Part shown: positions 1 to 549 of the stretch, in pieces
Layout of the letters: each line of letters begins with the position of its first letter
Position numbering within the stretch: position 1 is the stretch's first letter
NCBI RefSeq assembly: GCF_003334305.1
Contig: NZ_QOWS01000074.1
Direction: 5' to 3' (one strand)
DNA: 549 nucleotides
From: Escherichia coli
Lineage (GTDB): Bacteria; Pseudomonadota; Gammaproteobacteria; Enterobacterales; Enterobacteriaceae
Program-made: the position numbers and the translations under genes
Notes under the pieces: model-generated
What the model saw: only the letters and a program-made list of their open reading frames with translations
What the model was told of the DNA's origin: nothing
Database searches by the model: none

Positions 1-549
1 ATATCACCGGACGGTAAACGCAGCACCATCGAATATGATAAACGCGGGCGTCCGGTGAGTGTGACGGAAGGCGGTCTGACGCGCAGCATGGGGTATGACG
101 CTGCCGGGCGCATCACTGTGCTGACCAACGAGAACGGCAGCCAGTCCACGTTCCGGTATGACCCGGTCGACAGGCTGACGGAGCAGCGCGGCTTTGACGG
201 CCGGACGCAACGTTACCAGTATGACCTGACCGGAAAACTCACGCAGAGTGAAGATGAGGGGCTTATCACCCTCTGGCATTACGATGCGTCGGACCGTATC
301 ACCCGGCGCACGGTGAACGGTGAACCGGCGGAGCAGTGGCAGTATGACGACCACGGCTGGCTGACAGAAATCAGCCACCTGAGTGAAGGCCACCGTGTGG
401 CGGTCCACTACGGCTATGACGATAAAGGCCGTCTGACGGGCGAACGGCAGACTGACGGAGAAGACGGACCGCATCCCGACGGGTGTGATACGGACGGACG
501 ACGAGCGGACCCACCACTACCACTACGACAGCCAGCACCGCCTGGTGTT
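1..549 (+). CDS. Rhs-family YD-repeat protein, internal fragment of the conserved core; both ends lie outside the window. Frame 1 for 1-450, Rhs reading continues in frame 2 from about 452, so the gene is frame-disrupted and possibly a pseudogene or deletion remnant.
   Basis: Frame 1 translation of 1-450 has no stop: [150 protein letters not shown]. It carries repeated xYxYDxxGR(L/I)T motifs, the YD-repeat signature. Frame 2 translation of 437-547 is [37 protein letters not shown], which I recognise from memory as a segment of the E. coli RhsA-type core. High G+C (about 61%) is typical of Rhs cores. Assignment to a specific paralog (rhsA/B/C/D) is not possible from this fragment. Confidence 0.88.
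31..547 (+). repeat. Array of eight degenerate YD-repeat units (coding repeats, period about 60-63 nt; last unit in frame 2)
   Basis: Y-D dipeptide codons at 34-39 (EYD), 94-99 (GYD), 157-162 (RYD), 220-225 (QYD), 280-285 (HYD), 343-348 (QYD), 415-420 (GYD) in frame 1 and 524-529 (HYD) in frame 2. Spacing of the first six intervals is 60-63 nt. Most units are followed by G/D-R/K-(L/I)-T. The hexamer tatgac recurs five times at nucleotide level. Confidence 0.85.
433..458 (+). other. Frame-shift / out-of-register repeat junction within the Rhs core (frame 1 to frame 2)
   Basis: Direct 7-nt repeat ctgacgg at 433-439 and 452-458, offset by 19 nt (19 mod 3 = 1). The 19-mers 421-439 (gataaaggccgtctgacgg) and 440-458 (gcgaacggcagactgacgg) match at 14 of 19 positions. 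Frame 2 has TGA at 434-436 and then reads [12 protein letters not shown]. Frame 1 reads GRLTGERQ and then loses all YD-repeat character. Confidence 0.6.

Follow-up and report, generated by a model that had tools for sequence, protein, structure and literature searches.

The question raised by this stretch of Escherichia coli DNA (the window, 549 nt in length, analysed as a whole and with a G+C content of 61%) is whether its regularly spaced tyrosine-aspartate (YD) dipeptides belong to an intact Rhs core or to a gene that has lost its function. Rhs YD repeats are approximately 21 residues long, with a consensus around YDxxGR[LI]T, and form beta-hairpins; in a complete Rhs protein these hairpins enclose a C-terminal toxin in a closed shell. 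An N-terminal domain attaches the protein to VgrG so that it can be delivered by the type VI system, and the toxin is released within the shell through cleavage by a conserved Rhs-associated core motif.

YD repeats and family assignment

The translations of frames 1 and 2 were searched against the RHS and YD-repeat profiles, as the original prediction had proposed, and the search was positive. Five matches to Pfam RHS_repeat (PF05593) were obtained in frame 1 with an i-E of 0.001 or less (best i-E 6e-9), and TIGR01643 (YD_repeat_2x) scored 61.9 bits against a cutoff of 15.8; with repeated YD units above the thresholds of both models, the window belongs to the Rhs/YD-repeat family. The NCBIfam equivalog RHS_core (NF041261) matched residues 1-151 of frame 1 (E = 3.5e-90) and also frame 2 from nt 444 onwards (E = 8.9e-18). 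The assignment to an Rhs/YD-repeat core, put forward originally as a known family, was thus confirmed by all three profiles and by 100% identity to annotated E. coli Rhs loci. The family is already thoroughly described, and the gene itself is already flagged as a frameshifted pseudogene by RefSeq.

A total of eight YD dipeptides was found within positions 31-547, a range which had been given accurately and which encloses them all; frame 1 has seven of them (beginning at nt 34, 94, 157, 220, 280, 343 and 415) and frame 2 has one (nt 524), while no YD was found in any of the minus-strand frames. The spacing from one YD to the next is 60, 63, 63, 60, 63, 72 and 109 nt. The eight motifs had been described as recurring at about 60-63 nt, and this is correct for their number and for the first five intervals, but not for the last two (72 and 109 nt). 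The final 109-nt interval crosses the deletion junction and the change of frame described below, and in intact relatives the same last two YD motifs are 681-696 nt apart. The seven YD in 151 residues (containing 9 Y and 14 D) were matched by none of 100,000 residue shuffles, in which the maximum was 6, and the YD signal is far beyond chance.

The four-residue motif situated two residues after YD reads GRIT, DRLT, GKLT, DRIT, GWLT, GRLT and HRLV in units 2 to 8 (HRLV being in frame 2), and the first YD unit has GRPV at this position. The flank G-R-(L/I)-T, said to be conserved, is a fair consensus in that a looser pattern, [GDH]-[RKW]-[LI]-[TV] two residues past YD, fits seven of the eight units; the exact form follows YD in only two of them (nt 106 and 427). 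A further GRLT is present in frame 2 at nt 446, the YD of which was removed by the deletion.

A tandem repeat at the level of the DNA was considered and rejected: Tandem Repeats Finder, run on the window DNA, detected no array of 60-63 nt, its sole array being a trivial one of 7 nt at positions 310-325. The periodicity is therefore confined to the protein level.

On the minus strand, an ATG-initiated open reading frame (ORF) of 156 codons (window positions 4-474) runs opposite to the Rhs coding frame. It contains no YD, is absent from the annotation of every RefSeq locus inspected and is antisense to a coding region of 61% G+C; it was judged to be spurious as a gene, and the G+C-rich codon pattern is the most likely cause of its existence.

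The internal deletion and its junction

The coding remnants and the junction that joins them are listed in Table 1. A frame 1 that is free of stop codons across the whole 549 nt, most of it filled by seven regular YD units, agrees with an intact, continuously translated Rhs core, but this reading is already refuted by the split profile match, since Rhs similarity in frame 1 ends at residue 151 with none beyond nt 452 and resumes in frame 2, 191 RHS_core positions (765-955) further on; furthermore, RefSeq marks the gene as frameshifted, and intact relatives have 572-587 extra nt at this point. The original description of the window as Rhs core sequence therefore stands, with the amendment that the core is not intact and consists of two frames joined by a frameshifting internal deletion.

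Table 1. Features of the 549-nt window, with the evidence for each.
Feature	Position (nt)	Strand	Evidence
Frame 1 coding remnant, Rhs core (YD-repeat shell)	1..452	+	RHS_core positions 614-764; seven YD units; NCBIfam NF041261, TIGR01643, Pfam RHS_repeat (five matches)
Last frame 2 stop (TGA) before the junction	434..436	+	Stop-codon positions in frame 2
Deletion junction, 9-nt microhomology ACGGCAGAC	444..452	+	Comparison with the intact genes of ECONIH6, E2863 and CE0026a
Frame 2 coding remnant, Rhs core 3' of the deletion	444..549	+	RHS_core positions 956-990; eighth YD at nt 524-529; NF041261; 100% identity to the intact E2863-type gene

Frame 2 contains ten stop codons in the window and is open from the last of them to the window end. 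As all ten lie upstream of the junction, frame 2 is coding only after it. Alignment with intact genes revealed that 572 nt are missing relative to ECONIH6, 584 nt relative to CE0026a and 587 nt relative to E2863. All three lengths equal 2 modulo 3, which accounts for the shift from frame 1 to frame 2. The 191 positions lost from the 1,261-position RHS_core model correspond to about nine repeat units; for the E2863 protein the loss amounts to about 196 residues, likewise approximately nine units.

The left parent sequence reads ...GGCGA ACGGCAGAC GGTGGAGAAC... and the right parent sequence reads ...GATGAAT ACGGCAGAC TGACGGAGAAG..., the 9-mer being common to both; in the window it is preceded by the left flank and followed by the right flank. 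It is read as (E)RQT in the left register and as (Y)GRL in the right register, and this difference identifies the event as an out-of-register join at a chance microhomology, as opposed to in-register recombination between YD units. The breakpoints share 9 nt exactly and 19 nt imperfectly. The missing 572-587 nt were lost between two copies of the 9-mer that belong to separate repeats and differ in codon register, probably by slippage or illegitimate recombination at the microhomology.

The left half of the allele was closest to the CE0026a core lineage (97.6% identity over 2,312 nt) and the right half to the E2863 lineage (99.6-99.9%). Within the window, CE0026a is 99.1-99.8% identical on the left side of the junction and 89.7% on the right, while E2863 is 100% identical on the right side and 90.7% on the left. 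A single intact parent identical on both sides was sought and not found among the compared genes, CE0026a fitting the left only and E2863 the right only; the allele is thus a mosaic. Because the two halves are closest to different core lineages, the junction could alternatively have originated from misaligned recombination between two rhs copies, and not from a simple intragenic deletion. Between the 3' part and the intact E2863 gene there are 2-6 differences in 1,367 nt (five of the six in A7 being synonymous), which is in keeping with an event that, on the evolutionary scale, is recent.

Searches of the literature on rhsG, on ydcD in connection with rhs and on the type VI secretion system of ECC-1470 yielded general accounts of the rhs locus and of rhs relics, none of which reports the present deletion. 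The exact lesion is now defined as an out-of-register deletion of 572-587 nt at ACGGCAGAC.

Locus context and the predicted product

The window was found, 100% identical and in one piece, in many E. coli chromosomes. RefSeq annotates the gene in A7, ECC-1470 and RM7190 as 'RHS repeat-associated core domain-containing protein, frameshifted', and in A7 the window is inside a 3,660-nt CDS. The order of the A7 locus is vgrG, intact rhs, a small gene, ISAs1, a hypothetical gene, DUF3969, the pseudogene, ydcD, two copies of ISAs1, yafV, ivy and fadE, so that the pseudogene is the second of two rhs genes in A7. In ECC-1470 and RM7190 the pseudogene is annotated directly after the vgrG of the type VI cluster and its 3' end is overlapped by ydcD; at the same place E2863 has an intact rhs of 4,239 nt, followed by ydcD. 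The type VI secretion cluster concerned lies between yafT and yafV, and the gene is its vgrG-linked rhs, with the variable C-terminal tip that precedes ydcD. With vgrG upstream and a small immunity-type gene downstream, the arrangement is that of a type VI Rhs effector locus, the immunity role of YdcD being putative. In K-12, ydcD comes after the rhsE remnant.

The two rhs genes of A7 are in tandem and in the same orientation (L001 208-4443 and 7151-10810), the pseudogene lying 2.7 kb downstream of the intact copy, and they share 94% identity over their first 2.3 kb. This tandem layout could allow replacement of the tip by recombination. The vgrG-linked rhs of this cluster has been named rhsG in a study where junction sequences were used to trace type VI loss (PMC10711316), and the type VI cluster of ECC-1470 has been reported to adjoin a repetitive rhs element (PMC5422975).

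In ECC-1470 the 5' ORF extends for 830 codons from the normal start; the match to RHS_core 1-764 (1564 bits) covers its initial 765 residues, after which comes an out-of-frame tail that ends 99 nt beyond the 3' edge of the window. In A7, strain 41 and ECC-1470 alike, the 3' ORF has 457 codons without a stop, and that of ECC-1470 matches RHS_core 956-1261 (653 bits), TIGR03696 (Rhs_assc_core) and Pfam RHS (PF03527), with a DUF6973 tip. This C-terminal tip, which is in the 3' part and outside the window, carries Pfam DUF6973 with an i-E of 2.6e-11. The intact E2863 protein matches RHS_core 1-1261 with 2663 bits, the equivalog cutoff being 2000. In the deleted allele no one polypeptide covers the whole 1,261-position model at a score of at least 2000 bits, its 1564 and 653 bits being in different frames, and the TIGR03696 cleavage motif, instead of following the YD shell in frame and leading to the toxin tip, is present only in the out-of-frame 3' ORF.

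The 830-residue product would correspond to the N-terminal domain and half of the shell (approximately 765 residues), followed by an out-of-frame tail, and would be without the remaining shell, the cleavage motif and the toxin. To judge from the sequence, the loss of 191 core positions and the shift of frame make it unlikely that the shell could close, and the product should be inactive as an effector. The window is considered, with a probability of about 93%, to be an internal piece of an E. coli vgrG-linked rhs gene which a frameshifting deletion of approximately 580 bases has left as a non-functional pseudogene remnant. Counting against this is the 3' frame, open for its 457 codons and nearly identical to E2863; its openness fits a recent event, and on its own leaves room for some residual use of the 3' part. 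The retained ydcD may still serve as an immunity gene.

It is very improbable that the deleted allele as such is still in use, whether through a +1 ribosomal frameshift (nt 437-648) giving a shortened Rhs, as a silent 'orphan' 3' toxin/immunity module reactivated by recombination, or as an 830-residue VgrG cap. Such use would be in keeping with the preserved 3' ORF, with an intact ydcD in A7, strain 41 and ECC-1470, with the frequency of the allele (406 genomes) and with the tandem layout of A7, which permits C-terminal displacement as described for rhs fragments (PMC2935791), but the frequency is explained by shared ancestry, and carriers gain further lesions, as neutral decay predicts. In addition, frame 1 has no stop in the window at which a stop-dependent shift could occur, and a programmed frameshift was set aside for want of positive support. 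A shell minus about nine repeats is, by the standard of established Rhs structures, unlikely to close. Beyond the frame 2 stop, the earliest codons in that frame from which translation could start are the GTG codons at nt 485 and 545, and the 15 nt preceding each of them contain no Shine-Dalgarno-like sequence.

It is equally hard to credit that the allele persists in approximately 7.5% of genomes because it is useful, either as a silent reservoir of the 3' ORF (with its DUF6973 tip) and ydcD or as a toxin-less VgrG cap. Were it a reservoir, recombination with another rhs core could reactivate the 3' ORF; were it a cap, the type VI apparatus would keep firing and ydcD would protect the cell against relatives with the intact toxin.

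Distribution, further decay and relation to known systems

A 71-nt query across the junction (window nt 415-485) was compared with 5,426 complete E. coli genomes, matches being counted at a coverage of at least 80%. The junction was found in one piece in 406 of these genomes (about 7.5%), while intact genes match only the right-hand 42 nt of the query, from window nt 444. Although Rhs cores are repetitive and multi-copy (the window matches a median of 3 places per genome) and can be misassembled, a spurious frame change, introduced during sequencing or assembly when repeated Rhs sequence collapses, can be dismissed, because the identical junction recurs in 406 complete genomes that come from many hosts and were sequenced in many laboratories, as befits a real and common allele, and because the homology at the breakpoints, even counting its 19 imperfect nt, is too short for assembly collapse.

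Further lesions were observed in several carriers of the pseudogene. In the A7 copy a further single nucleotide is deleted near codon 94 (after codon 93; gene nt ~281), as a result of which window frame 1 is out of frame with the gene start; this lesion is absent from the ECC-1470 copy. Strain 41 (L005 7930-10810) has a vgrG-rhs fusion with two additional deletions and a degraded type VI cluster, and in RM7190 ydcD is frameshifted according to the RefSeq annotation.

In A7 the gene start and the 3' part share one frame, and the middle, including window frame 1, is in another. The CDS of strain 41 is annotated by RefSeq as 'tssI/VgrG, frameshifted'; the fusion comprises the first ~933 nt of the tssI/VgrG CDS (with no rhs match), rhs nt 196-340, rhs nt 1844-2303 and the deleted allele, one extra junction falling at about window nt 1-6, and the type VI cluster of this strain has a partial VasL and no tssC. 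The first base of the window (A) was matched in five genomes among the matches listed (S42, A7, 41, TUM12355 and 2c3), most other carriers matching from nt 2, which makes an A7-like strain the probable origin of the window. Plasmid-borne matches to the window accounted for 14 of 10,496 places, and Rhs core sequence is thus occasionally found on plasmids. In K-12 derivatives the match starts only at nt 382 (window 382-549), which agrees with the known 5'-truncated rhsE remnant beginning inside this part of the core.

As a simple marker, the 71-nt junction identifies one particular decayed allele of a type VI effector and could be used in surveys of lineages or of T6SS decay, in the manner of the junction sequences in PMC10711316. 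Beyond correct annotation, the window is of little importance.

With respect to known systems, the window resembles the E. coli Rhs core proteins (NF041261; rhsG), having the same YD-repeat core and 100% nucleotide identity to annotated loci, and its surroundings are those of other E. coli vgrG-linked rhs loci, with vgrG upstream and with ydcD and ISAs1 (H-repeat) copies downstream, followed by yafV-ivy-fadE. The same tip and ydcD are found with rhsE of K-12. Unlike the E. coli Rhs core proteins, the gene of the window is without profile positions 765-955, is frameshifted and has two ORFs which both score below 2000 bits; it is a pseudogene derived from a member of that family.

Rhs pseudogenes, relics and displaced C-terminal fragments have been described (Jackson et al. 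2009, PMC2935791). Like the relics and orphans of that account, the present gene is a decayed copy at an rhs locus, in tandem with an intact rhs in A7, and has kept its tip and the following gene. It differs from the classic orphans, which are 5'-truncated and consist of the core end and tip only, in that its start codon and the N-terminal 765 residues have been retained, the break being an out-of-register deletion in the interior of the gene.

Among solved Rhs proteins, the intact relative matched, by sequence and over the YD shell, Tse5 of Pseudomonas (8cp6, E = 9.5e-125), RhsA of P. protegens (7q97, E = 4.4e-95), Tse15 (8uy4) and an Rhs of Salmonella bongori (8qjd), with E values from 9.5e-125 to 1e-54. 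These matches suggest that the repeats of the window would be hairpins of that shell. Unlike those four proteins, which have a complete shell, plug, cleavage motif and toxin, the deleted allele would encode the N-terminal part of the shell only. The YD shells of teneurins and of Tc toxins (TcB/TcC) are built from the same type of repeat, and teneurin-like chains match the intact relative (E = 3e-26), while the match of the window itself to Pfam TEN_YD-shell is weak (E = 0.18). The relationship to these shells is far more distant than that to the Rhs proteins of E. coli, to which the window belongs at the nucleotide level.
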